Source of the DNA: an uncultured delta proteobacterium
Lineage (GTDB): Bacteria; Desulfobacterota; Syntrophorhabdia; Syntrophorhabdales; WCHB1-27
NCBI GenBank assembly: GCA_963810935.1
Contig: CAWEPK010000010.1
Span: forward strand, 96,001 to 160,000
Length of the DNA stretch: 64,000 nt
Direction of reading: 5' to 3'
Positions 1 to 43,076 of the stretch are shown here, piece after piece. Both the position numbers and the translations under genes were made by a program. Every line of letters starts with the position of its first letter. The first letter of the stretch is position 1. Below the pieces are notes generated by a model. It saw only the letters and a program-made list of their open reading frames with translations, made no database searches and was not told the origin of the DNA.

Positions 1-908
1 AACCTTTTCTGTTACCCCTGCCCTTACCATATTTCTGATCGCTGTTCTTCTAAGATCGTGGAAGAGTCTCCCTGGTATTCTCGCCCGATCACATGCATTC
101 TCCCAGGCTTCACGCATGTCTCTTATCCGCTTTCCCTTACGAAAGAATACATATTCGCAGAGAGGATACTGGGAATCTCTTATCGTCTGCTGTCTCAGCA
201 TCGTTTCGTATAGCTCCCCGCCCATGTAGACTATCCGTGCCTCGTCGTTCTTCGTCGTCCCTGCATCCAGGGTTACCTTCTTCTCGAAGATGTTCATCTG
301 GTCCCACTTGAGCGATAATATCTCCTCTTTCCGCATGCCAGTGAAATACCCCATTACAAGAACGGGCCGGAGATATTCTGGCAGTTGCTCCTTCAGCTTT
401 TCAAAATCCGCATACTCGAAATAGCCGGTTCTCACGTTGTTCTCTTTCAGCCTAGGAATATGGGGAACCTGTCCAACCTTGGCCGGGGTAGTTTGCGCCC
501 CAAGCGTAAACATCCTCTTTAATGCTGCCAACTCTCGGTTGATAGTACCGTTTGCCGCGCCCGCCTCTTGCCTTTCAACAATGTAGTTCTTTATGCGGAA
601 CGTGGTGATTTCGGCAACCCGGTTGCCTTTGAATTTCTTTTCAAGGTGAGCCTTCAGTTCCTCTGCCCTCTGAAGGGATTTTCGACCGTTCATCTTATAA
701 TCGGTTATGAAATCAGCCGCGATCTCGTCGAACTTGATGCGCTCGATTTGCAGCCCCTTGAATCGCCCCTCGACTATTTCCCCTTCCCTTTCTTCAATAC
801 TGCCTTGGCATCGGTTTCTTTCCGCGAATGACTGCTTTCCCTGTAGGGCTTGCCGTGCCGGTAATACTTAATCCAGTATGTTTTACCTCTGAGATAAATC
901 ATTCCCAT
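1..908 (-). CDS. int: Tyrosine recombinase/phage integrase (3' end runs off the window)
   Basis: Manual translation from ATG at 908: [25 protein letters not shown]...[13 protein letters not shown]...[13 protein letters not shown]...[17 protein letters not shown] (catalytic R and HxxR motifs); absent from the ORF track because it has no stop in the window. Confidence 0.95.
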
Positions 909-1650: not shown

Positions 1651-1750
1651 TGTACGGGGTGTTTATTGTATACCCCCGTATTGTACGTACTTTAGTACAT
1701 CAAGTACGGCTAGTAATTGTATACAATATATTGTACTTATTTATATACAT
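1651..1750. repeat. AT-rich cluster of TTGTA(T)AC/GTAC repeats and palindromes upstream of xis
   Basis: TACGGGG...CCCCGTA inverted repeat, ATTGTATACAAT palindrome, many GTAC copies within ~100 bp. Confidence 0.5.
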
Positions 1751-2325
1751 TAGACTAAAACTTCATTCCCGCTTTCGCCCTTGTTGTGGCCTATCTTTGG
1801 AGAACCACAAAAAAAGGGATACCGAATTAGACGCAGACTTCTTCATATAACGCTCCTATACACGGGATTTTGTATCAAATCGCGGTTCTTAAATCTGTTC
1901 GCTCTTACGGTTCGGCAAGAGCGATGGAGACTGTCGCGAAGACGATTTCCGAGGACGAAATACAAAAAAGGGTTTAAGAACTAATAAGCTCCTAAACCCT
2001 TTCATGGTTCTTATTTCTCGTCGCTTTTCGGGCCGGGAAGAACTGTCTCTGTCTTTTTCCCTTACCCAGTGACTTAACTAAAATAATCCGGCTTATGGCG
2101 ACTTGTCAAGATTGGGGGTCTGTTTTTCTCAACTACCCTGCGTTATCAGTCGATTACAAGAACGAAACCGATCATTGGCCTTTGGTCTCCTGAATTGTAA
2201 AAACCAAAACCCGTAATTACGGACGTTGGAAGAGAAAGCCGGAGTGCGTATCTATAACGAAGCGCGTAATAGGCAGATGTCGCGAGTTGAAGATTGCCAC
2301 AAATAAGCTCAAATATGGAATCAGG

Positions 2326-2622
2326 TTAGGTAAAGTCTTTTGGGTACGGTTTCCATTTATGCTCACAGGCTTGGCACACCATTTCAATCTTCTTTCTTCC
2401 GAGCATTACGACCAGCAGTCCCACAGGTCCCAACAAGAGCTCACCGACGGCAGCCTTGCCGAGGCCAAACCCCTTTTGGCCCGTCGCAATGTTCATGGAA
2501 CTACACTTTGGACATCGAATGTGGAGACCAGGAGCTTCCTCTCCACAGTGAGGACACGCGGGAGCACTTTTAGACACTTCTCTGCCGCATGTTTTGCATT
2601 TCACTAGTTCTGGCATTCGCAT
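2326..2622 (-). CDS. Zinc-ribbon protein with glycine-rich hydrophobic segment
   Basis: CKTC, CPHC, CPKC, CQAC pairs and GFGLGKAAVGELLLGPVGLL; GGAGG RBS before ATG 2622. Confidence 0.75.
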   Translation of the reverse strand: MRMPELVKCKTCGREVSKSAPACPHCGEEAPGLHIRCPKCSSMNIATGQKGFGLGKAAVGELLLGPVGLLVVMLGRKKIEMVCQACEHKWKPYPKDFT

Positions 2623-3522
2623 TTCCTCCCTAATACGCGGACGAGGCGACGTAATTGCGAAAGACAAAGAGGACAGCTACATTTTCGATCGGTGCTCGCC
2701 TTCTTCGCCCCACCAACCCATGCGTAATCATAGCCACCAGTAGCTTTGTATTGCAAAAGAAACTTTCATGGGCGCATTTTCGGGAAGAAATTTTTGGATG
2801 ACTTGGCACTTGTATGATAGGTGATGTTCCGACTTCTACTCCCGAATAAAGGCAAGCGCGGTATTACCTAAAGATGTTATGAAACGGTATTAAATGAGAA
2901 GATAAACCCCGCTTTCACCCAGAATAATTGTCAAATAGCGGGGTTCCGCTTTATTACACGGCCACTATTGTTCTCTCAGCAAAACACTGGCTTCCTTGAA
3001 TTGCCTTGCAATCGTTGGGTTTTGCTTATGCTGAAATCAATTATATATGCCTAAACCACCTCTCTCTTGCTCCAAAAAGACTCGATAAAATATTTGTGCA
3101 GATGCTTCGCGGTTTTCAGTATTTACTAGTAATGGGAGGAAGGGAGTTTTTTAAGCTATGCCGCCCTGTCGCATCGACTCCGGTTTTTCGATAAAGATAT
3201 TAAGGTAATAAATGCCTTTGAGCGTCCAGTTGGCAGGCATCGATTCAAACAGCTCATGGGCTTCACATAAATATATAGGATAGGCCATGCTGTAAGGCAT
3301 AGCCGCAAAGAGCCACGAACAAATCAGATAATCTCTCTCTTGTTCAAGTGCAAAGCATTGGCAGGTTAACCCGAATCGCTAACGCAGGGCCGGCTCGTCG
3401 GGTGAAGCACAATAGCGCCTGAGTCCCTCAGGTGTCTGGGCGGAGCTATACCCAAAATTAGCAGGCAACTTTTCGACCTCATTGAAACAGGAACACAGCG
3501 AAAATAAATAGGAGTAAAAACA

Positions 3523-4032
3523 ATGAACCAAACACTTAAGAGGACATGGACAGAATTGATGTCAAGGAATTCATTCGAGTGGTTTGCATCCCTCACATTT
3601 AGAGATCAGGTCTCTTCTTCTTATGCACGTAAGACTTATATCGATTGGATACGAAATCTCTGCGTTCAAGAGCACATGCAAGTCGCCTCAATGACTGTAT
3701 ATAATCCGTCTCCTCACCCACATTTGCACTCGGTCATTTTAGGAACTAACAAGGGCGGACGCGCACTGAATGATGTTTCTTGCCCCGAGTGGGAGAGAAA
3801 ATGGAATAGGAATCCGAAAGCAGCAAGAATCGAACTCATACGCGAGCTGAACGATGTCGCTGCTTATCTGGCATTCAAGAATCTTGATGTAAATTCCATT
3901 GATCCAGAAAATTGGTTTTCCTACAATCAGAAGCTTCTCATCAAAAAGCAAAATCCGAGAATAGACCTTCGGTATAATGACACGTACGGAGGGTCTGAAC
4001 GGGCATCCTCGGCCGTTGACAGTACATTATGA
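3523..4032 (+). CDS. HUH-endonuclease rolling-circle replication initiator-like protein
   Basis: Motif I WFASLTF, motif II PHLH (HUH), motif III-like AAYLAFK in the correct order; AGGAG RBS. Confidence 0.7.
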   Translation: MNQTLKRTWTELMSRNSFEWFASLTFRDQVSSSYARKTYIDWIRNLCVQEHMQVASMTVYNPSPHPHLHSVILGTNKGGRALNDVSCPEWERKWNRNPKAARIELIRELNDVAAYLAFKNLDVNSIDPENWFSYNQKLLIKKQNPRIDLRYNDTYGGSERASSAVDSTL

Positions 4033-4316
4033 CCGGGCTCGATGTTTAACGCCATTCCACCATTACCTTAACGGAAGTCAATCGGATTGTTTACGGTCAG
4101 GGCAGAGGGGGTCAATTATATCTGGTTGGTTGAGGACTTCACCTACAATCAGCGTCTTGTCGAGGACATCAGAGACCGAAGATTACCGATGAAAAGCGGG
4201 AACCAGAAACGCATGTCCGACGACCTACCGTTGGTATACCTGTCGAGGGAGTATGAGGTGCCTATGCACATGTGAACTACCGGGAGTGTTCAGGGGAAGA
4301 CTTCTTGTTGAATTTC

Positions 4317-5489
4317 TCAGCCTGCGTTCCACTTGCCATTCTCGTCAAACCAGCTTGACCGCTCATAACCACATGCGTTCCAAACTATATCAAACATGGG
4401 CTTCAAAAGTCGTTGCATATCCTCCTCGTATGTCTCGATTAGGGACTCAGGCAGTGATAGGATGTCCCTATCAATTGGATAACCAGAATCGAATTGATAT
4501 ATAGACCCTGGCTGAATTTGCCAACCCTTGACGCCGATAAACGTCAGAGAAACAAGGAATGGTGGCCTGATACTCAGGTCCTTTAATGCTCTAACATAAC
4601 TATCCACCGCCTGTGGCAATTCTTTCTCATAGCCAAGGCTTGGAAGAATCCGGCCTTCTCGATCCGCTCTCAGCCAAAACCCTTCAACCGCTTCGATGAT
4701 TCCGTTTCGATGCAGTTGCATATAGGATGTAGTGTTTCCTCCCGTTAGGAAATAAATTAGCAAGCCTTCCAAATTGATTCTGGGGTTAATAGCGCCAACC
4801 ATTCTGGAATTGACCGGCCACAAATTCTGTTTTTGACCCATACTTGATTTAATGTCGATAACAGTCTCCAAGTCAAAAGCCTCTAATGGTATTAGATGCA
4901 GTACGATCTTTCCACCGTGAATGAACGGTACTGGGGTATCATCCGAGACCAATTTCGCAATTCTTTCAGTCTTGAAGTCCCTAATCCGTTTAGATTGGGT
5001 TTCAGACAGATTAAACGCTGCTCTCAACTGCACTGTATCCAAAGGATATTTACCGGCGGAATTTCTGGCATAAAATTTGTCATGCCCCTTGAAGACAACC
5101 CTGTGGGGACCGATCCAACTTCTCTTAATTCGCAGGACAAGGGCTATCTTGCTTTGGCTCACCTTCACCGGATGAATTGTCACTTGAATCCGAGGTTCAA
5201 TTCCATCCTGAATAAGGCTATCGTACCTTCTTTTCTCTTCGTCGATGTTCTGGGCAGTCACGCCCACAATCTCAACGGGTATGCCGTCTTTTTCCTTAAC
5301 TCCATAGATCAGGTCTCCACCGGATGTGTTGGCAAAAGACGATACGTCTGACAGAAACTCCTTTCGGTCGGAGTCAGTTTTCCCCGGCAATTCAAGCTTA
5401 TACTCTATAGATTTGCCTTCCATTACGCTGTTGTCAACGAGGTGCTGCAAGTCGGTTTGGTTAATTTCCTCCAAAGGTTTGTTCAACAT
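4317..5489 (-). CDS. Schlafen/AlbA_2-domain protein (~390 aa)
   Basis: EGKSIEYK and DVSSFANTSGGDLIYGV are AlbA_2 signature motifs; likely start MLNKPL at 5489. Confidence 0.9.
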   Translation of the reverse strand: MLNKPLEEINQTDLQHLVDNSVMEGKSIEYKLELPGKTDSDRKEFLSDVSSFANTSGGDLIYGVKEKDGIPVEIVGVTAQNIDEEKRRYDSLIQDGIEPRIQVTIHPVKVSQSKIALVLRIKRSWIGPHRVVFKGHDKFYARNSAGKYPLDTVQLRAAFNLSETQSKRIRDFKTERIAKLVSDDTPVPFIHGGKIVLHLIPLEAFDLETVIDIKSSMGQKQNLWPVNSRMVGAINPRINLEGLLIYFLTGGNTTSYMQLHRNGIIEAVEGFWLRADREGRILPSLGYEKELPQAVDSYVRALKDLSIRPPFLVSLTFIGVKGWQIQPGSIYQFDSGYPIDRDILSLPESLIETYEEDMQRLLKPMFDIVWNACGYERSSWFDENGKWNAG

Positions 5490-5669
5490 ATTACCCCCAT
5501 TGAATGCGCGGCTTATCTTGATCTGGCACTTTTTGCTATTCTCATATTTTGTCGATACCCCGTCAAAGAAGACCCCAGCCGTAGCACTATCGCAGGTCAG
5601 AAAGACAGTACGAAGCACCGCTCTTGTCAAAACCTCCCTTTCAGGAAGTTCGTCTCTATCGGCACCATC

Positions 5670-7028
5670 TCATGCCGATTGCCCTCCCCTCCGAGCGGAA
5701 GGTGAAACCCCGTAGTACTCGCGGAGCAACTTCTGTTGATATTTTCTTATCTTCTCGGTTTCTCCAGCTTCAGAATACTCTATGAGACGCTGAACATTTT
5801 GGTTTTTTAAAGGAAGGCTATTCAGTTCGTGCTTCGTGACCAATTCGTGCCAAATGCTTAAAGGCTTACTTTGAGCCAGCTTATCAAGTATTCTTACATC
5901 GCCCGGTAAGCACTGATTCAAATAGTACTGCCATTGTTCGCGGCTGAAACGGTCAAGAATTGCGGAAGCAATTGGTGTAGCGTTGTAGCTCTGCCCGTAA
6001 AAGTTTCCAAGTCTTACAGCCAGAATCGCCGAGGCGCACATCGAAAATGCGGCTGTAGGAATCCTGGAGCCGAGTTTTGAGAGCACTCTCATAGGAGCTG
6101 CCTCATTGAAGAAGTTGTTCATTCCCTCGTGGGCCTTTATAACGTCCTGTGCAGCTCTTATGTATGAATCCGATCGAAGAGTCTCTGGGACGTAATCGAA
6201 TCCACCCACCTTCAGTAAAGCCACTTTCAACCCGGCCATTGCAGTGCTTTGGCCAGCGGCGTGAACCTCCGCGTAAGCGTGACCGGTCTGCCACCGCTCT
6301 GTATCTCTCAACGTCGGCCAAAGTAACGGAATGATGACGTTAAAATTAGCAAGGGCATTCTCTAACTGTGCGCCCGCCTTCTTTCTTATGGTCGATAATA
6401 GCACACTGATTGTAAGTTTCTTAAAAAAATATGGCGAAGACAGCAAAGAGGATACGCGCTGATCTTCCGCCGACAACGTTTCCGATTCGACGGCATTACG
6501 AAATTCAACAAACTTCGTAGCAACTTCTACACGCGGCTGCCCCAGAATATTCCTTACGCACGCCTTTATTATCTGGCTCGCTTCATTCTGCTCCATCTCA
6601 ATTTCTTCGCTCTCGATCATTTCCGGATCAAGCTTTGAGAAGTGAACAACTGTTTCATGAGCGTGTTTGAGGCGCATCGCCTCTGTTCGAGAAACAATAC
6701 CTAACTCTTCGGCAAGCTGGATCGCTTCCTTATCGGTTACTACGTCAGCCACATTGTCATATTCGGTCAAGTCTGGTTTATTGATCATCTCGCCCAAAAG
6801 ACGCATGCCTAGACTTTCCAATTCTCTTTTGAGGCTTGCCATGGCTTTGGACCAAACAAAACTGGACACCATCTCGTAACTTCCCGCCTGAAACGCCTGG
6901 GAGATTTGTCGCTTATCACGTTGGGTCAACTGGCCTGCATATCCCAAGACATCAGGAAGGGCGTTGACGTTGGAAGGTAAAACTGCGACGCCGTCTGGTT
7001 GCCATAGGGCCATAGAGTTATCTGTCAA
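5670..7028 (-). CDS. Hypothetical 452-aa helical protein with HEPN-like N-terminal region
   Basis: Long ORF; TTG start overlaps the upstream TGA (TTGA); AFQAGSYEMVSSFVW...AEELGIVSRTEAMRLKHAHETVVHF resembles HEPN helices with a degenerate RxxxxH. Confidence 0.7.
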   Translation of the reverse strand: MTDNSMALWQPDGVAVLPSNVNALPDVLGYAGQLTQRDKRQISQAFQAGSYEMVSSFVWSKAMASLKRELESLGMRLLGEMINKPDLTEYDNVADVVTDKEAIQLAEELGIVSRTEAMRLKHAHETVVHFSKLDPEMIESEEIEMEQNEASQIIKACVRNILGQPRVEVATKFVEFRNAVESETLSAEDQRVSSLLSSPYFFKKLTISVLLSTIRKKAGAQLENALANFNVIIPLLWPTLRDTERWQTGHAYAEVHAAGQSTAMAGLKVALLKVGGFDYVPETLRSDSYIRAAQDVIKAHEGMNNFFNEAAPMRVLSKLGSRIPTAAFSMCASAILAVRLGNFYGQSYNATPIASAILDRFSREQWQYYLNQCLPGDVRILDKLAQSKPLSIWHELVTKHELNSLPLKNQNVQRLIEYSEAGETEKIRKYQQKLLREYYGVSPSARRGGQSA

Positions 7029-8044
7029 GATACCCTCCTAAAATCCGTCCATCCGTCTTGAGACCTAATGAATACGGCGCTGACCCCTTTTCCGAGCCTT
7101 GCCGTCAACGTATCGAATGCTCGCCTTCGTCCTCCTCCCGCTGCCCGCCCCGCCTTGTTCGAGTATTTTATGAAACATCCATAAGCCAACAGTCGGGCAT
7201 CTCGGGTGAAAACAACTATACCGTCCGAACCAATCATTCCGGTCAACAACGCGGATGCGGACAAAAGAGAATAAGGCATAATTCTAGTCTTCTGCGCTTG
7301 CCGAACTTTTGCGAGGAAATCAATCGGAGCTTCAAGAATCACGCCGTCAGTAAGCAATTTAGGAACTGTATGGGCCGGACAAACTGCTATAAGAGTGCCA
7401 TGACATTCAGCCAAAGCCCGGCTAAGGCACCTACTTAAATAGGTCATCACCGGCTCTCTTTCGCCCACGGGGCACCTTTCACAGATGATCTGAACCAGGT
7501 TTTGGGCAAATTCGGTTGGCGGCAATTCACTTTCTTTCTTGTGGGATAGAAAAACGTTGTACGTTTCGCCTATATGATTCCTTATTTCCACACAGTCTTC
7601 CGCGATTTGATAGGCCCGCACGAGCTTTATACTCCCGTCGCCTGACGATAACAGTGTTTCGGCAATCGGCACCGAAAGAGGGCTTCCGCTATCGCGAAAG
7701 ACGCCAAATCTAATGTTTTCCCCCTTGCCTTCGACAAAAATGCACCATCCGTCGATAGCAAGTGTCGCGCATCTCTTGAGAACCTTTCCGATGAAGTCTT
7801 CGCTTAACGTTGTATTACCGATATAGACAATCTCATGTTCGGGAATAAGGTGGAGAACCTGCTCAACGTCAGTACACAGATAGATCTCTGGAGTTAACCT
7901 AGCCCCCTCTTCCTTATATCGGGCAAGGGTCACGATTAGCTCAGCCAGGGTGTTCGGCCGAACCAGCGGCTGCATACCTGATGCTTCGCAGAAGTCATTC
8001 ACGCTGCCCGCTAGATGCGTTCTAAACGTGATGTTTCGCGGCAT
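7025..8044 (-). CDS. Divergent DisA_N/DAC (diadenylate-cyclase-like) domain protein with N-terminal extension
   Basis: C-terminal HGTLIAV...SDGIVVF...LLAYGCFI...GGGRRRAF...AVFIRSQDG parallels DAC motifs (GALIV, DGA, GTRHRAA, VSEE/SQDG); GGAGG RBS before ATG 8044. Confidence 0.75.
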   Translation of the reverse strand: MPRNITFRTHLAGSVNDFCEASGMQPLVRPNTLAELIVTLARYKEEGARLTPEIYLCTDVEQVLHLIPEHEIVYIGNTTLSEDFIGKVLKRCATLAIDGWCIFVEGKGENIRFGVFRDSGSPLSVPIAETLLSSGDGSIKLVRAYQIAEDCVEIRNHIGETYNVFLSHKKESELPPTEFAQNLVQIICERCPVGEREPVMTYLSRCLSRALAECHGTLIAVCPAHTVPKLLTDGVILEAPIDFLAKVRQAQKTRIMPYSLLSASALLTGMIGSDGIVVFTRDARLLAYGCFIKYSNKAGRAAGGGRRRAFDTLTARLGKGVSAVFIRSQDGWTDFRRVS

Positions 8045-8244
8045 TAGACCTCCAATTGCCTTGCAGGAACAGAATGGCGGGCAAGGGGACGGCTTCACTT
8101 TTTTGCTCGCCCCCTGTGCCTTCCCGTCCATTTATTGATTACCACTCACATTCGGTTTATGCAAGAGAAACTTGAACATTATCTATTTCGGGAAGGAGGT
8201 CTTGTACGATCGCGCACTTCAGGTAGACTCATGAATTCCATGGA

Positions 8245-8281
8245 AGAAAAGGGGGTAGCACCACCGAGGACGCTACCTCCA
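8245..8281 (-). terminator. Probable intrinsic terminator
   Basis: Minus strand GGAGGTAGC-loop-GCTACCCCC followed by TTTTCTT. Confidence 0.45.
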
Positions 8282-8472
8282 ATGTGTGTGAAGTAACTAT
8301 GAGTTTAACCGTCCATTATCGTGATGTCCACCCCCGCCAACCTTATTACAGTTCTCAGTTTTCGTCGAAACGGCCCATCAAGGTGAATCGTCATGCGGCA
8401 ACGAACAACCCTTGTAAATAGACTGGCAGTCATAAGGCCTGGGGTTCGGTCCCCTTAAGTTAAAGGTGTCCA

Positions 8473-8491
8473 TGTGCCCATTTTTGTGCCC
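8473..8491. repeat. TGTGCCC direct repeat, candidate integrase arm-type site
   Basis: TGTGCCC-ATTTT-TGTGCCC about 130 bp inside the att core. Confidence 0.45.
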
Positions 8492-8622
8492 GCCACTGGG
8501 AGTCAAGAGCTGATTTTGGATGACTCCAGGTGACACACCGTAAAATAGTAAGGCGCTATAGTCGCTGGAATTATTAGGAAAGAGAGGAGATTACGGTAAG
8601 TCCGCTATTTGGCCGCCGTGTT

Positions 8623-8679
8623 CTCAAAATCCGGTGGGGCTTACACCCCGTACGGGTTCGATTCCCGTCTTCGGCACTA
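8623..8679 (+). other. att site: 3' half of tRNA-Leu(CAA) (not a complete tRNA)
   Basis: CTCAAAATCCGG anticodon loop and stem 3' side, variable arm GGGG-CTTACA-CCCC, T arm ACGGG-TTCGATT-CCCGT, acceptor 3' strand CTTCGGCA; no matching 5' GCCGAAG or D arm upstream. Confidence 0.85.
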
Positions 8680-8708
8680 GTTTCTGAGCCATCAGCGTTT
8701 CTCCGCTT

Positions 8709-8880
8709 TCACCGAACGTAACACTTTTGTAACACTCGGTGTTTTCCAGATAATTCATCGAGCGCCCGCATGGCAGGTGTGGTGCTCTCCAGGGCGTGGT
8801 GCGCATAACGCAGCGTCATCTGCGGCCCCTTGTGGCCGAGGATCTTCCGGACCCGATAGAGATCGACCCCGTACTTCTGA
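8709..8880 (-). pseudogene. C-terminal remnant of a second tyrosine integrase
   Basis: GVDLYRVRKILGHKGPQMTLRYAH has the LGH...T..Y catalytic end; GTAACAC-TTTT-GTAACAC repeat at 8718-8735. Confidence 0.8.
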
Positions 8881-8950
8881 GGAGAAACGGCTCGTCGTCG
8901 ATGACGAGGATGCGCCACTTCTCTTTGGCAATCGGCTGTGGTTTCTGCAT
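8878..8950 (-). pseudogene. N-terminal fragment of a response-regulator receiver domain
   Basis: ATG 8950 gives MQKPQPIAKEKWRILVIDDEPFLL (ILVIDDEP receiver beta1 motif) and then runs out of frame into the integrase remnant. Confidence 0.6.
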
Positions 8951-9273
8951 TGCCTTCACATCCTCGTATTTACTTTATACCTTGCGGTCTCGTCTGTCTG
9001 TAACCTGCTTGCCAATTTGACAAAGATGGAACCGGCAGCATGTAGCCGGTTTAACGGAAGCCAAGATGCGACTGCCGTACGATCTATCGAAAAGAGGGCG
9101 GCTTTCACCGCGCAAGAGGAACGGGCCATGTACTTATTTCGCAGAATCGTACAGGCATGGATCGATAGTTCTTTCTTCGTTGAGCTCATCGGCCGCCACC
9201 GCTGTAGACCGGCGCGAAGGGCGTGCACATAATACAAGTATAAGGCCTATTCTGTGCTTCAGGGAGGTAAACC

Positions 9274-10560
9274 ATCACCCGGCTGGCTGTCGCCAACCAG
9301 TTCTTCACTATCTTAACCGTCAATAGCGGCTCCTCCAGCGTGAAATTCTCCCTCTTCAGGATGAGCGGCTCCGAAGAACAGAGGAGGGTCCGGGGCGCCG
9401 TCGAACGAGTCGGTCTGAGGTCCGGCATCTTCAGGGCGGAAAACGCCCGGGGTGAAACGCTCGTAGAGAGGCATGAGGACGTGCAGGACCATGACAAGGC
9501 CTTTGACGTCCTTTTCGCATGGCTGTGCGGCTCGTCAGCCGCTCCGGATGCGGTGGGCCACAGGATCGTCCACGGCGGCGACGCTTTTGTGGAACCTCAT
9601 ACGGTAACGGAAGAACTGGTCAGGATGCTGCTGCGTCTTACGCCCCTTGCACCCGACCACCTGCCCCATGAGATAAGGGCTATAAGAGCCGTTAAGCGTT
9701 CCTACCCGGCCCTCCCTCAGGTCGCCTGCTTCGACACGGCCTTTCATCGACACATGCCCCGGCTGGCGCGCATGTATCCTCTGCCCCGGTTTCTTGAAAG
9801 GGAGGGGGTGCGGCGCTATGGCTTTCACGGACTATCCTGCGAGTACATAATGGCGGAGCTTGAAAAGGAAGCGGGCAAGGAAGCGGCGGGACGCCGTATC
9901 ATCATCGCCCATCTCGGAAACGGGGCGAGCATGACGGCGGTCAGGAACGGCAAGTCGATGGATACTACCATGGGGTTCACTCCCGCCGGGGGTCTCATGA
10001 TGGGTACCCGTCCGGGCGACCTCGATCCGGGAGTCATGCTCTATCTTCTGGAAGAAAAGGGGCTGCGGCCTTCGACGGTCAGCGACATGGTGAACCAGCA
10101 TGCGGGTCTCCTGGCCGTCTCTGCAAGGACGTCCGACATGGAGGAACTTCTTTCCGCCGAGACGACCGACCCTCACGCGGCGGAGGCGGTCATGCTCTTC
10201 TGCTACCAGGCCAGTAAGTTCGTCGGTGCCCTGGCAGCCGTGCTCGGCGGCCTCGATACCCTGGTTTTTACCGGCGGCATAGGTGAGAATGCACCGGCCG
10301 TCAGGGCGGCGATTTGCTCCGGCCTCGAATTTCTGGGTATAGAGATCGATCCGGCCGCAAATAGAGCGAATATGCCTATCATTTCTGCCGGGGGCAGCCG
10401 GGTGTCCGTCCGCGTGATGAAAACGGACGAAGAGCTGATGACGGCGCGCCATACGTTCAATCTTTTACAAAGAGAACGGGGGAGGTGCAAGTCCGTCGTG
10501 ACCCTTCCGTACCTTTCGGAAAGCACCGGAGGGACCGGGCCAAAGACAAGGAGCAGATGA
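9274..10560 (+). CDS. ackA: Acetate kinase
   Basis: ILTVNSGSSSVKF, VGHRIVHGG, FDTAFH, RRYGFHGLS, HLGNGAS, DTTMGFTP, FTGGIGEN, TDEE; the frame extends upstream of GTG 9340 to an ATC at 9274 behind GGAGG. Confidence 0.93.
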   Translation: MTRLAVANQFFTILTVNSGSSSVKFSLFRMSGSEEQRRVRGAVERVGLRSGIFRAENARGETLVERHEDVQDHDKAFDVLFAWLCGSSAAPDAVGHRIVHGGDAFVEPHTVTEELVRMLLRLTPLAPDHLPHEIRAIRAVKRSYPALPQVACFDTAFHRHMPRLARMYPLPRFLEREGVRRYGFHGLSCEYIMAELEKEAGKEAAGRRIIIAHLGNGASMTAVRNGKSMDTTMGFTPAGGLMMGTRPGDLDPGVMLYLLEEKGLRPSTVSDMVNQHAGLLAVSARTSDMEELLSAETTDPHAAEAVMLFCYQASKFVGALAAVLGGLDTLVFTGGIGENAPAVRAAICSGLEFLGIEIDPAANRANMPIISAGGSRVSVRVMKTDEELMTARHTFNLLQRERGRCKSVVTLPYLSESTGGTGPKTRSR

Positions 10561-13082
10561 ACCGCGACAATGAAAACAACCAGACATCGTCGGCAAAGGA
10601 CATAAACCAGCCCCTGGAAACCCTTTTGCGCAGCCTGAACGCTTCCACGGACGGCCTTACCGGCGACGAAGCGGAGAAGCGTCTCGGGCAGTACGGCCTG
10701 AATGTCATTGGAGAAACAAAGGTAAATCCCCTCCTCAAGTTCCTTTCCTACTTCTGGGGCCCTATCCCGTGGATGATCGAAGCGGCGGCAATTCTTTCCG
10801 CGATAGTCCGACACGTAGCCGATCTGATAATCATTCTTGTGCTCCTTATCTTCAACGCGGTGGTCGGCTTCTGGCAGGAGTACAAGGCAGCCAACGCCGT
10901 GGAGGCGCTAAAGAAACAGCTTGCGTTGAAAGCCCGCGTCCGGCGTGACGGCGAATGGATGGAGGTCGATGCCGCCCGCCTCGTACCCGGCGACGTCGTG
11001 CGGGTGAGGGCTGGAGACATCATCCCTGCGGATCTCAAGCTTTCCGAAGGGGATTATTTGAGCGTAGATCAATCGGCCTTAACGGGCGAGTCCCTCCCCG
11101 TTGATAAGAGACAGGGGGACGTCGCCTATTCGGGATCCATAGCAAAGCAGGGGGAGATGGCCGCCCTCGTCGTTAACACGGGTGATGCCACCTACTTTGG
11201 GAAGACCGCCCGTATGGTGGCGACTGCAAAACCTATCTCCCATTTCCAGAAGGCGGTCCTCCAGATAGGCGACTACCTCATCTATCTCAGCCTGGGGCTC
11301 GTGGCGGTGCTTATCCTCGCCATGCTTTCACGCGGCACGCCGTTGCTCACGCTGGTGCAGTTCGCCCTCATCCTGGTCGTCGCGGCTATCCCGGTGGCCA
11401 TGCCTGCGGTACTCTCCGTTACGATGGCCATAGGCGCCATGGCCCTTGCGAGGCTGAAAGCGATAGTGACCCGCCTGGAGTCGATCGAGGAGATGGCGGG
11501 AGTCGATATCCTCTGCGCAGACAAAACGGGTACCCTCACGCAGAATAAGCTCACCCTCGGAAAGGCGGCAATCTTTGCCGGTGCTTCCATTCAGGCGGTG
11601 GTCCTCGCCGCCGCCCTGGCCTCCAAGGAAGAAGACCGGGACGCCATCGACATGGCTGTGATCGAGGGGCTGGAAGACCCCTCGGCCCTGAACGAGTACA
11701 AGCAGGAGGCCTTTGTCCCTTTCGACCCTGCCCGCAAGCGGACGGAAGCCGTGATTATAGATAAGGAAAAGAAGCGTTTCAAGGTTGCCAAGGGGGCGCC
11801 CCAGGTAATCCTCGATCTTTGCAATCCCTCTCCCGTCCTCGCGCAAAAAGTCAACGGGAAGGTGGAGGAGTTGGCTGGGCACGGGTACCGGACCCTCGGC
11901 GTGGCCCGGCAGGACAACGAGGGCTGGCAATTTCTCGGACTCCTCCCGCTCTTCGACCCTCCCAGGGAAGATGCGGCCGAGACCATCAAAAGAGCCCAGG
12001 ACTACGGCATCGAGGTCAAGATGGTGACGGGAGACAACCTCGCCATCGCGAAGCAGATCGCTTCAGTCCTCAAGCTAGGGACGAACATCAGGCCGGCGGA
12101 GGAGTTCTTTGCCGGATTGACGGGAAAGGAAGAGCGCATACCGGAAGAGACTGCGAAAGAAGTGGAAGAGGCGGACGGCTTTGCCCAGGTCTTCCCCGAG
12201 CATAAGTTCACCATCGTCAAGGCATTGCAGCAGCGGGGGCACATAGCCGGCATGACGGGGGACGGGGTGAACGACGCGCCGGCCCTCGGCCAGGCAAACG
12301 CGGGGATAGCGGTGAGCGGAGCGACCGACGCCGCCCGCGCCGCGGCGGCCCTCGTGCTCACGGCGCCCGGCATCTCCGTCATTGTCAGGGCCGTGGAAGA
12401 GGCGCGGAAGATATTCGAGAGGATGACGAGCTACGCCATCTACCGCATCACCGAGACTATCAGGATCATGTTCTTCGTCGTCCTGACGATGGTTGTCTTT
12501 AATTTCTATCCCATCACCACCGTCATGATAATCCTCCTTGCGCTGCTGAACGACCTGCCCATCATGACGATCGCCTACGACAATACCCTGCTCGAGCAAA
12601 AGCCCGTGCGCTGGGCGATGCGCCGGGTCCTCACCGTTGCGACAACCCTTGGCCTGATAGGGGTCGCCGAGACCTTCGGGCTCCTTTTAATCGCGAGACT
12701 GCTCCTCGACCTCACCGTTCCGCAGATCCAATCGTTGATCTATCTGAAGCTCGCCGTCGCGGGCCACCTCACCCTGTTTGTCGCCAGGACGAAGCGTCCT
12801 TTCTTCACAAGGCCTTATCCCGCCCCCGTCCTTCTGATCGCGGTTGTCGCGACGCAGACCATCGCTGCTCTCATTGTGGGTTTCGGCTTCCTCGTCGTCG
12901 CTATCCCGTGGAAATACGTCGGCTTGGTCTGGGCCTACTGCCTTGCATGGATATTCATCGAGGACCGGGTGAAGCTCCACGTCTACCGCCACCTTCTTCT
13001 CGAACACAAAGGACACAAGACCTTTTTGGACTTAGTGAAGAAAAACCTGCATCCCTATACCGGGGGTCAGGGTCGGGGATGA
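10557..13082 (+). CDS. Plasma-membrane proton-efflux P-type ATPase (P3A)
   Basis: FWGPIPWMIE, LTGES, IPVAMP, DKTGTLT, KGAP, MVTGD, GDGVNDAPA, LLNDLPIMTIAYD; ATGA overlap with the ackA stop. Confidence 0.95.
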   Translation: MNRDNENNQTSSAKDINQPLETLLRSLNASTDGLTGDEAEKRLGQYGLNVIGETKVNPLLKFLSYFWGPIPWMIEAAAILSAIVRHVADLIIILVLLIFNAVVGFWQEYKAANAVEALKKQLALKARVRRDGEWMEVDAARLVPGDVVRVRAGDIIPADLKLSEGDYLSVDQSALTGESLPVDKRQGDVAYSGSIAKQGEMAALVVNTGDATYFGKTARMVATAKPISHFQKAVLQIGDYLIYLSLGLVAVLILAMLSRGTPLLTLVQFALILVVAAIPVAMPAVLSVTMAIGAMALARLKAIVTRLESIEEMAGVDILCADKTGTLTQNKLTLGKAAIFAGASIQAVVLAAALASKEEDRDAIDMAVIEGLEDPSALNEYKQEAFVPFDPARKRTEAVIIDKEKKRFKVAKGAPQVILDLCNPSPVLAQKVNGKVEELAGHGYRTLGVARQDNEGWQFLGLLPLFDPPREDAAETIKRAQDYGIEVKMVTGDNLAIAKQIASVLKLGTNIRPAEEFFAGLTGKEERIPEETAKEVEEADGFAQVFPEHKFTIVKALQQRGHIAGMTGDGVNDAPALGQANAGIAVSGATDAARAAAALVLTAPGISVIVRAVEEARKIFERMTSYAIYRITETIRIMFFVVLTMVVFNFYPITTVMIILLALLNDLPIMTIAYDNTLLEQKPVRWAMRRVLTVATTLGLIGVAETFGLLLIARLLLDLTVPQIQSLIYLKLAVAGHLTLFVARTKRPFFTRPYPAPVLLIAVVATQTIAALIVGFGFLVVAIPWKYVGLVWAYCLAWIFIEDRVKLHVYRHLLLEHKGHKTFLDLVKKNLHPYTGGQGRG

Positions 13083-42090: not shown

Positions 42091-42128
42091 TTGACATGGT
42101 GTTAGATGTCGTATAACATACTCTAACA
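42091..42128 (+). promoter_or_regulatory. Sigma70-type promoter overlapped by an inverted repeat
   Basis: TTGACA-17 nt-TAACAT; TGTTAGA-N15-TCTAACA at 42100-42128. Confidence 0.6.
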
Positions 42129-42129
42129 C

Positions 42130-42222
42130 TCTATAAAGCCAAACCGCCGGTGACGGTGGGACGGAAAGCCAACGGGTCTCGGACATACACCTCGCAAATC
42201 ATTCAGACAGCCGGGCTGCCAT
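42130..42222 (+). ncRNA. Cyclic di-GMP-I (GEMM-I) riboswitch
   Basis: GCCAAACC-GCCG-GTGA-CGGT-GG-GACGGAAAGCC-AACGGGTCTC...AGACAGCCGGGCTGCC matches the GEMM-I core; lies in the 5' UTR of a surface protein gene. Confidence 0.88.
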
Positions 42223-42353
42223 GAGCGTCACTCTCAAAAACGAAAGAACGGGGTGAAAAGCATCACTGGCAAACAATGTCATGCAATAACGTGGTTCTTT
42301 ACGGGTTGGCAGGAACACAGCTCATGAACAAGAGATGCCAAGAATAACGAGGG

Positions 42354-43076
42354 GTGAAGAAAATGAGAAAAATACTATTTCTTGCGGTGTGCGTGTTATT
42401 GTTGATGTCCGGAGTGGCACAGGCGGACTATACAGCGACTTTGGCAGTTGGCGGCAACTACAACTCGGGCATTGCTTTGGATTTAAACGGGGTTCCATGG
42501 CCGGCAGAGTCGACCGGGGGTTCTATATCGCCTTCATATTTGAATGGGACCTTGCTCTCCTATACTTACTGCGTAGGTCTCACAACAAACATTAATGTCC
42601 CTGGCACTTATACCACGAATGTAAATACAACAGGGCAGGTTTACGGTAACGGCCTTGGCGCAGCGACGACCCTGAACGCAGTCCCCAATGCCGGGCAGAT
42701 AGCATGGTTGCTGAGCCAATATGGCGCCGGAGCCACCACATGGAATCAACAGGTAGCCCTCCAGGTGGCCATATGGAACGTAATAACAGGCGGTCCAAGT
42801 GGTACGCCCACGGGTGCGTACGGCCTCTCTGGAATCATCAGTCTTGACCCTAGTTCCAGTGCATATACTACCTATACCGGTTATCTCAGTGCCCTGGGCA
42901 GCAACACCGGGGACGTCTCCAGCTTCTACTGGCTGAGCCCGGGGGACGGTACCGGCGCCAATTGGTCTCAGGGGCTGGTTGCTCAGGCCGCTCCTGTCCC
43001 CGTCCCTCCGTCTGTGTTTCTTCTGGCCCCCGGTCTCCTGGGTCTTGTCGGCATGAGGAGACGCTTCAAGCTGTAG
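42354..43076 (+). CDS. PEP-CTERM/VPLPA-CTERM sorted surface protein with thioester-domain-like motifs
   Basis: Signal peptide ...GVAQA; YTYCV, QVALQVAIW, SQGLV; C-terminal VPVPPSVFLLAPGLLGLVGMRRR. Confidence 0.88.
   Translation: MKKMRKILFLAVCVLLLMSGVAQADYTATLAVGGNYNSGIALDLNGVPWPAESTGGSISPSYLNGTLLSYTYCVGLTTNINVPGTYTTNVNTTGQVYGNGLGAATTLNAVPNAGQIAWLLSQYGAGATTWNQQVALQVAIWNVITGGPSGTPTGAYGLSGIISLDPSSSAYTTYTGYLSALGSNTGDVSSFYWLSPGDGTGANWSQGLVAQAAPVPVPPSVFLLAPGLLGLVGMRRRFKL

Follow-up and report, generated by a model that had tools for sequence, protein, structure and literature searches.

Defence-Associated Diadenylate Cyclases and Their Relation to the A–B Locus

A role of diadenylate cyclases (DACs) in phage defence was first demonstrated in 2026, for two classes only, both of them found by their Pfam signature. 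PanDA/Panoptoo (two bioRxiv preprints, August 2026) combines PanS, a bare DAC domain of ~150 amino acids, with the 2TM-beta effector PanE. The motifs DGF and GGR of PanS enzymes with experimentally shown activity are non-canonical, about 50% of the systems are reported to be adjacent to CBASS, and no genome is reported to hold both PanS and a non-immune DAC (2026 bioRxiv preprints). DS-2C/CdaG (DefensePredictor, Science 2026; Liu preprint), a component of the CBASS variant DS-2/Liu-DS2, has ~550–575 amino acids arranged as DACNG, DACNH and DAC domains. Here we describe a pair of overlapping genes, A and B, found in a 64,000 bp stretch of DNA from an uncultured delta proteobacterium (GCA_963810935.1, contig CAWEPK010000010.1, positions 96,001–160,000; this whole stretch is called the window). 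The C-terminal domain of A has the DAC fold in its structure model, B is an all-helical protein, and the pair is a conserved, mobile two-gene module, very probably a conflict or defence system.

The locus resembles PanDA/Panoptoo in being a two-gene, defence-island arrangement with a DAC-fold enzyme of non-canonical motifs (DGF and GGR in PanS, DGI and GG.R in A); both are found mostly in Pseudomonadota and sometimes beside CBASS. However, PanS is a bare DAC domain whereas A has 339 amino acids, including an N-terminal domain predicted to dock B. PanE is a membrane protein (2TM-beta or S2TM-beta, Cap15-like) while B is soluble and all-helical, the Pfam DAC signature finds PanS but not A (12 bits for a cut-off of 27), and PanS is reported only from genomes without a housekeeping DAC whereas the host of A has two. 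DS-2C/CdaG is likewise a defence-associated DAC with extra N-terminal domains of unknown function, as in A, but its operon has three genes, the other two coding for a CD-NTase and a phospholipase. Neither of these is present on the island of A, beside which only B is conserved, and no match to DACNG or DACNH at E ≤ 1 was found in the 46 members of the A family. Identity of A–B with either system was rejected because the pair shows the defining features of neither.

The canonical enzymes DisA, CdaA and CdaM/DacM (3c1y, 7y0d, 6hvm, 7dg0) are encoded by core genes, whereas A is accessory and mobile. A differs from them by the lack of transmembrane (TM) segments, of the HhH domain and of a CdaR/GlmM context, by an Arg or Lys in place of the His of RHR and an Ile in place of the Ala of DGA, and its identity to them is 16–22%. 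The host genome codes for two such canonical DACs (L027 and L028, at G000:C8:439222-439572 and G000:C4:3812-4159). One, of 254 amino acids, is of the CdaA type, with a hydrophobic N-terminal part and the textbook motifs GALIVL, HDGAVVI, GTRHRAA and VSEETG; the other is a soluble protein of 226 amino acids with GSRHLAA. The island enzyme thus coexists with housekeeping cyclic di-adenosine monophosphate (c-di-AMP) signalling.

Proteins with a DACNV domain followed by DAC (PF21751 + DAC), which we take to be the "CdaV" class of Galperin 2023, show a comparable layout. The example at locus L115 has 382 amino acids, with an N-terminal domain and then a DAC domain carrying GGTRH and ASQDG (GG.RRR and SQDG in A), and DACNV is the nearest language-model cluster of the A N-terminal domain. 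With a score of only 0.76 this is a weak lead, as is a second one to a DACNH cluster with the same score, and the assignment of the domain to DACNV or DACNH was dropped because it was not confirmed by hidden Markov model (HMM) search or by hhalign. The PF21751 HMM matches 5 of 201 genomes in a sample of the phylum to which the genome of locus L025 belongs, but none of five genomes with an A homologue and none of the 46 A family members; hhalign of A1 against the DACNV protein gave an E of 0.3. No B-like gene is present at seven DACNV loci within the ~1.5 kb covered on either side. In the literature on diadenylate cyclases, defence and HEPN we found no name for the A–B pair, although the family lists of the DAC survey and of the preprints may include A. 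Neither protein matches a family of PADLOC-DB v2.0.0 (E ≤ 1) or of NCBIfam, and no Pfam model names A or B (B has no Pfam match); the statement of the preliminary description of this DNA, made by a model from the sequence, that the pair is not a named system thus holds.

Gene A and Its DAC-Fold Domain

Genes A and B had been described as two minus-strand genes overlapping by TTGA, and the sequence bears out the open reading frames (ORFs), their coordinates and the overlap (Table 1). The TGA stop codon of A shares this tetranucleotide with the TTG initiation codon of B, which implies that translation of the two genes is coupled. Related loci with calls for both ORFs (n = 16) show the genes overlapping by 1–8 nt or separated by at most 13 nt, with a single exception that is an artefact of the longest-ORF rule. 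Both are real genes rather than chance ORFs because homologues exist for each (49 for A and at least 461 for B). A longer frame of gene A starting at 8131 (368 amino acids) lacks a Shine-Dalgarno sequence. The 339-amino acid start is favoured because the homologues begin at MPxNITFR.

In its structure model A is composed of an alpha/beta domain (residues 1–175) and of a domain with the DAC fold (residues ~178–339). The latter had been recognised from its motifs, all of which are present (HGTLIAV at 215, SDGIVV at 273, GGGRRRA at 303 and SQDG at 328; HG.LIAV, SDGI, GG.RRR and SQDG in general form), and the top Foldseek matches of A are without exception DisA, CdaA or DacM. Residues D274, G275, G303, G304, R306, R308, S328, D330 and G331 are invariant in the 46 family members. 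When A was aligned by hhalign to the CdaA of its own host these motifs fell on HDGA and GTRHRAA (E 0.0036); a search of the A profile against the sequences of PDB chains yielded a chance match only (E 0.77). The reported absence of TM helices and of an HhH domain is correct. No TM-like segment was found (maximum 19-residue Kyte-Doolittle mean of 1.59), and there is no HhH domain because the chain ends directly after the DAC domain. A departs from the canonical motifs by DGI for DGA and R(R/K)R for RHR. The change of RHR to RRR noted before is therefore real, but by itself it is no argument for altered or lost activity, since active PanS carry DGF and GGR. Because the departures of A resemble those of these experimentally active enzymes, we infer that A may be an active nucleotidyl cyclase.

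The long N-terminal sequence of A had been noted as unrecognised, and its ~175 residues indeed have no match in Pfam, in the structure search or in family profiles. It is predicted with good quality as an alpha/beta domain and has invariant residues of its own, including Y43, E45, E46, K90, W100 and G114. There is no indication that it arose from the DAC domain by duplication (hhalign of the N- against the C-terminal part, E 0.25).

Pairing of A with B and Predicted Complex

The association of the two genes is near-obligate. Searching from A, gene B lies directly 3′ on the same strand in 25 of 26 genome loci, the exception being L018, while B is incomplete in L007, where it is present as two ORFs, and in L020. 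Searching from B in 80 metagenome loci, gene A lies directly 5′ in 74; of the remaining six, five have less than 300 bp of upstream DNA, so that L091 is the only real miss. The co-occurrence that had been expected of the homologues is thereby borne out. There is no third conserved gene, as no other gene family is common to more than three loci. The gene with an AlbA_2 domain found 3′ of B in the window was considered as a conserved third component and rejected, since tblastn matched it in 0 of 26 related loci; AlbA_2-domain genes occur 3′ of B at three loci (the window, L005 and L007), those of L005 and L007 belonging to another subfamily.

Two loci show individual features. In L007 (9016-9819, a Rhodoferax-like metagenome-assembled genome) B is split into ORFs of 147 and 113 amino acids while A is intact, and this split B is a probable pseudogene, judging by its sequence. 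In the Vibrio sp. dhg plasmid NZ_CP028945 (L122) a 204-amino acid hypothetical gene (3225-3839) starts at the stop codon of B, and an HTH_3 regulator is found 5′ of A. Pfam does not recognise the 204-amino acid gene, which did not recur as a conserved neighbour at other loci.

A model of the A–B complex, a check proposed at the outset, supports direct binding of the two proteins. Its ipSAE is 0.72 (0.72, 0.73 and 0.69 in the individual runs) and that of the best of three controls is 0.00, with a contact agreement of at least 96% and a partner pLDDT of 81. Of 157 solved complexes 116 reach the mark used, as do 2 of 215 mismatched pairs, a calibration that holds only roughly because the alignments behind the model are our own. 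The predicted interface brings the N-terminal domain of A and its first DAC helix (residues 62–70, 119–139 and 193–202) against B residues 217–287 (217–219 and 252–287), suggesting that A binds B through its N-terminal domain.

Protein B

The AF2 model of B is all-helical, without beta structure (pLDDT 86.4), and no TM-like segment was found in the protein (maximum 19-residue Kyte-Doolittle mean of 1.48). Residues ~30–168 appear to form a HEPN-like helical bundle according to VIA-align, with the HEPN-MNT pairs 7ae2, 8xdj and 5yep among the fold matches of this part. Residues ~168–440 resemble ARM/VHS/ENTH helical repeats, and Foldseek of B returned only ARM-repeat noise. The strongest motifs of the family, both invariant, are found in the repeat part: KV.GFDYVPE.LRS (273–286) and AHEG.NNFYNE (299–309). 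The motifs initially read from B, AHEGMNNFFNE at 299 and RLKHAH at 119–124, are both present. As to the HEPN-like character ascribed to B, its N-terminal domain resembles HEPN in fold, but the RxxxxH seen in RLKHAH is not conserved. The family alignment has R119, E125 and H129 as invariant residues (an Rx9H arrangement) and no conserved Rx4-6H. H124 is variable among family members, so the sequences do not point to a HEPN RNase site.

B matches PHROG phrog_27609, of unknown function (E 4.5e-21), and tblastn against 50,697 phage records gave no match. IMG/VR holds only four B homologues, all distant, three of which have A upstream. The Pfam 38.1 family "AF_1680" appears on 10% of one B cluster in Atlas; it is a candidate label only.

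The B Module in Single-Chain Proteins

A profile search of 1.84 billion representatives retrieved 603 B-family clusters at 50% identity. Several members are ~700–790 amino acids long and carry a complete B module C-terminal to an enzymatic head. Of 120 relatives listed for P0218, 85 (our count), named mostly from Clostridia, carry Peptidase_C14 caspase heads and three carry calcineurin-like Metallophos heads; a Ser/Thr kinase head was identified by its match to PADLOC PD-T4-6 (E 5e-86). P0218, P0223, P0251 and their relatives make up a large family of ~700-amino acid "caspase family proteins", with rarer metallophosphoesterase and PD-T4-6-like kinase versions, all with the B module at their C-terminus. 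From their sequences these fusions look like single-chain defence proteins, apparently unnamed. Heads of the kind known from the single-gene Ser/Thr-kinase system PD-T4-6 and from caspase effectors are thus joined to the B module; the difference is that head and B form one chain there, whereas here A is a separate protein and a putative nucleotide cyclase. The PADLOC models of PD-T4-6 cover the kinase part only.

In other defence families, a module that stays constant while its enzymatic heads are exchanged typically marks a sensor or regulator to which different effectors can be attached. The sharing of the module by PD-T4-6-like and Peptidase_C14 heads places B among defence proteins. Its fusion to several heads suggests B as a shared sensor or regulator chassis with A as an output acting in trans; by this sequence analogy, B is more likely the common sensor/regulator and A one of several interchangeable outputs.

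Distribution and Defence Neighbourhood

The A–B pair is mobile and sporadic. It is present in none of three genomes of the same genus, gave one weak match among 60 relatives, and occurs in 3 of 399 genomes sampled from the class to which the L003 genome belongs. The family is spread over Pseudomonadota, Acidobacteriota, Actinomycetota, Myxococcota and others, including plasmids. One plasmid pair lies beside a type II restriction-modification (RM) system and another, in Agrobacterium, beside an operon of CD-NTase and patatin; both plasmid A and B are annotated as hypothetical in RefSeq.

The defence-island enrichment that had been anticipated was found. From the 80 metagenome loci we kept those of at least 9 kb with both genes (n = 20, L032 being dropped as a duplicate of L031) and scanned two ORFs on each side of the pair with PADLOC at E ≤ 1e-15. 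Matches were obtained for 20 of 76 flanking ORFs, in 12 of the 20 loci, against 2 of 45 ORFs in a small control (Fisher p = 0.003). They comprise type I RM, TIR-APAZ with short pAgo, pAgo-SIR2, SIR2 and Gabija, and further CBASS E1-E2/JAB, phospholipase, a DpdE/ZorD-like helicase, PDC-S04, PDC-S20 and PDC-S31. Of 93 ORFs around the 26 genome loci, 13, at eight of the loci, have specific defence matches (E ≤ 1e-10), and four more matches are to generic enzymes. CBASS parts adjoin the pair in three loci: L059 (phospholipase), L065 (E1-E2 and JAB) and the Agrobacterium plasmid (nucleotidyltransferase and patatin). In two unrelated loci (L005, 3615-12194; L030, 45-6759) the pair interrupts a type I RM operon behind hsdR and hsdS; in L005 an N-terminal fragment of hsdM and an AlbA_2/HATPase_c_4 gene come next.

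The Island and Neighbouring Features

Genes A and B are carried at the far end of an 8.9 kb island integrated in a tRNA-Leu gene. The GC content of the island is 45–49%, that of the genome 58.3%. The pair had been placed as cargo of a tRNA-integrated island, just inside the attachment (att) site. The position is right, as shown by the 59-nt repeat, but the tRNA gene itself is outside the window, in which ARAGORN found no tRNA. What the preliminary description had before it inside the window is the attR repeat, identical in 57 of 59 positions to L029 1726-1784, inside the intact tRNA gene, at a spacing of 8,897 bp. The integrase adjoins the tRNA-Leu gene; its full length is 291 amino acids, of which ~180 bp extend past the window start. 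From the integrase end the island continues with the HTH pair, a zinc-ribbon gene, several ORFs without family, the AlbA_2/Schlafen gene (whose likely start is M47, near 5492), B and A. The hairpin upstream of A is weak evidence because such sites are not enriched over shuffled sequences, and the consensus scan for promoters and terminators as a whole did no better than on shuffled sequence.

Table 1. Features of the A–B locus and its island (coordinates refer to the window unless another contig or locus is given).
Feature	Position	Strand	Basis or remark
Intact tRNA-Leu(CAA)	G000:C10:95694-95782		~220 bp before window start; ARAGORN on contig
Tyrosine integrase	1..693 (whole gene L029:1818-2693)	−	Pfam Phage_integrase, E 1.1e-18
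Small HTH gene (HTH_3)	883-1155	−	Pfam, E 5.6e-06
Small HTH gene (HTH_17, excisionase-like)	1216-1455	−	Pfam, E 1.7e-07
Schlafen/AlbA_2-domain cargo gene	4317..5630	−	Pfam SLFN_AlbA_2, E 5.2e-17
Gene B	5670-7028	−	452 amino acids; TTG start; all-helical partner
TTGA overlap (stop of A, start of B)	7025-7028	−	TCAA on the + strand
Gene A	7025-8044	−	339 amino acids; ATG start; C-terminal DAC-fold domain
AGGAGG of gene B	7034-7039	−	5 nt 5′ of TTG
Shine-Dalgarno GGAGG of gene A	8049..8053	−	5 nt 5′ of ATG; read from sequence
Terminator-like hairpin, 5′ of A, between attR and operon	8254..8277	−	Consensus scan
attR, island right end	8623-8681	+	59-nt direct repeat of tRNA-Leu(CAA) 3′ half

The stretch is present in four soil DNA runs of one study; among the public runs listed as containing it there is none of RNA. 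A contig from one of the four joins L029 position 1725 to 10623, skipping exactly 8,897 bp, so that tRNA-Leu is followed directly by the right flank; the sequence 5′ of the tRNA in this contig is unlike that of the present genome. This is a weak hint that an island-free tRNA-Leu site exists. Just beyond attR, at 8709-8918 on the minus strand, lies a remnant of ~55 amino acids of a tyrosine recombinase C-terminus (LGHKGPQMTLRYAH), which matches only the last 27 positions of the Pfam Phage_integrase profile at a sub-cut-off E of 0.002. Its sequence suggests an older, decayed integration at the same tRNA-Leu hot spot. Elsewhere in the window, a c-di-GMP-I riboswitch aptamer (Rfam RF01051, 56.3 bits, E 2.4e-08) is found at 42128-42223 of the plus strand, 5′ of the ORF 42354-43076.

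Possible Mechanisms of the A–B Pair

The reading that we tentatively favour is that B senses and restrains while A, a DAC-fold nucleotidyltransferase whose active site would be intact, is the output enzyme of a mobile two-gene module of the anti-phage type. B, a soluble protein with HEPN-like and ARM-like parts, would be the constant sensor/regulator chassis, would bind A through the N-terminal domain of the latter and would keep it inactive in the resting state. A phage-derived trigger would then allow the DAC domains of A to pair face to face, and paired A would convert ATP, or ATP and another NTP, to a cyclic dinucleotide, a synthesis that may drain ATP, flood the cell with a growth-stopping signal, or both. 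Of this scheme, the analysis shows the DAC fold, the conserved catalytic motifs, the obligate and translationally coupled pairing, the mobility, the defence neighbourhood and the joining of the B module to other enzymatic heads; that A binds B (seen in the model alone), which partner controls the other, what A makes and that phage are held off are inferred. Its more far-reaching form, which we hold to be possible if doubtful, takes B as a general-purpose infection-sensor chassis wired to caspase, PD-T4-6-type kinase and metallophosphoesterase heads and, in trans, to the DAC-fold enzyme; the DAC would itself be the effector, arresting the cell by conversion of ATP to cyclic dinucleotide.

Several points weigh against the sensor role of B and the output role of A. 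The Pfam DAC model (DisA_N, PF02457) gives A 12.1–12.4 bits for a cut-off of 27, and across the family 5 of 46 members have any match at E ≤ 1 (best 4.4e-4). With two canonical DACs in the host, and given the reported exclusivity of PanS, an immune A that makes c-di-AMP would have to be kept tightly off. The control of the defence scan was small and came from a single genome (45 core window ORFs), with crude ORF calls of our own, and the complex score suffers from the home-made alignments mentioned above. The motif of B predicted to touch A, GFDYVPE.LRS, shows the same degree of conservation in the fusions with caspase and kinase heads, where A is absent, so that its conservation is not explicable by A binding alone. 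Finally, the direction of control could be the reverse, with B as a toxic effector and the heads as its activators.

The preliminary description had assigned the roles differently, in the manner of CBASS or Pycsar: the N-terminal domain of A would be the sensor, A would make a diffusible cyclic dinucleotide, and B would be its receptor and the effector, through its HEPN-like domain. We consider this assignment rather unlikely. The role of B becomes questionable once its module is found on caspase, metallophosphoesterase and kinase heads, none of which makes nucleotides, and that of the A N-terminal domain because it is the predicted docking surface for B. A further alternative is a guard of the Panoptes/PanDA kind, in which A constitutively synthesises a decoy dinucleotide that holds a toxic B off until phage sponges or nucleases remove cyclic nucleotides and so release B. 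No other mechanism has so far been demonstrated for a stand-alone defence DAC (PanS/PanE), and some loci of the family do adjoin CBASS parts (L059, L065 and the Agrobacterium plasmid). Such a guard is nevertheless unlikely here, as B is not a 2TM-beta protein and has neither a TM segment nor beta structure, A has an extra 175-residue domain unlike the minimal PanS, CBASS adjacency was met in only three examined loci against the ~50% reported for PanDA, and the swapping of heads on B speaks against a dedicated nucleotide receptor.

Nucleotidyltransferases classically pair with HEPN-fold proteins. The two genes might be a toxin–antitoxin, addiction or covalent-modification module stabilising the mobile element, in which A is toxic by its use of ATP or nucleotidylates the HEPN-like domain of B as MNT does with HEPN toxins. 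The overlapping genes, their location on islands and plasmids, the HEPN-MNT pairs among the fold matches of B and the predicted direct complex all agree with this proposal. We judge it quite unlikely all the same, because B is far bigger than typical antitoxins, the predicted interface spares both the HEPN-like domain of B and the active site of A, and the single-chain caspase and kinase fusions do not fit a two-part logic. That A is a housekeeping c-di-AMP synthase with a regulatory partner, comparable to CdaA with CdaR or GlmM and present on the island by chance, is very improbable. Its DAC fold and intact motifs, as well as the one locus of 26 that lacks B (L018), would suit such a role, but the host is already equipped with a canonical CdaA and another DAC, the pair is sporadic among congeners, relatives and the class of L003 (see above), the island is of low GC and flanked by att sites, and the neighbours are defence genes.

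Possible Significance of the A–B Pair for DAC-Based Immunity

A–B would bring to DAC-based immunity a genuine but Pfam-invisible DAC fold, as seen in the model of A, and a novel partner, B; the function set out above is proposed from sequence and models. The A family escapes the signature by which both classes of defence DACs were found, yet it is widespread (603 B clusters). If the pair protects against phage, it would represent a third architecture of DAC-based immunity, and if the DAC is itself the effector this would be an undescribed use of the fold by a third, Pfam-invisible class of immune DACs. The helical module would then be a reusable element coupling to caspase, kinase, phosphoesterase or cyclase outputs. 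It would provide a handle on the trigger that is sensed and for the annotation of hundreds of "hypothetical" and "caspase family" proteins.

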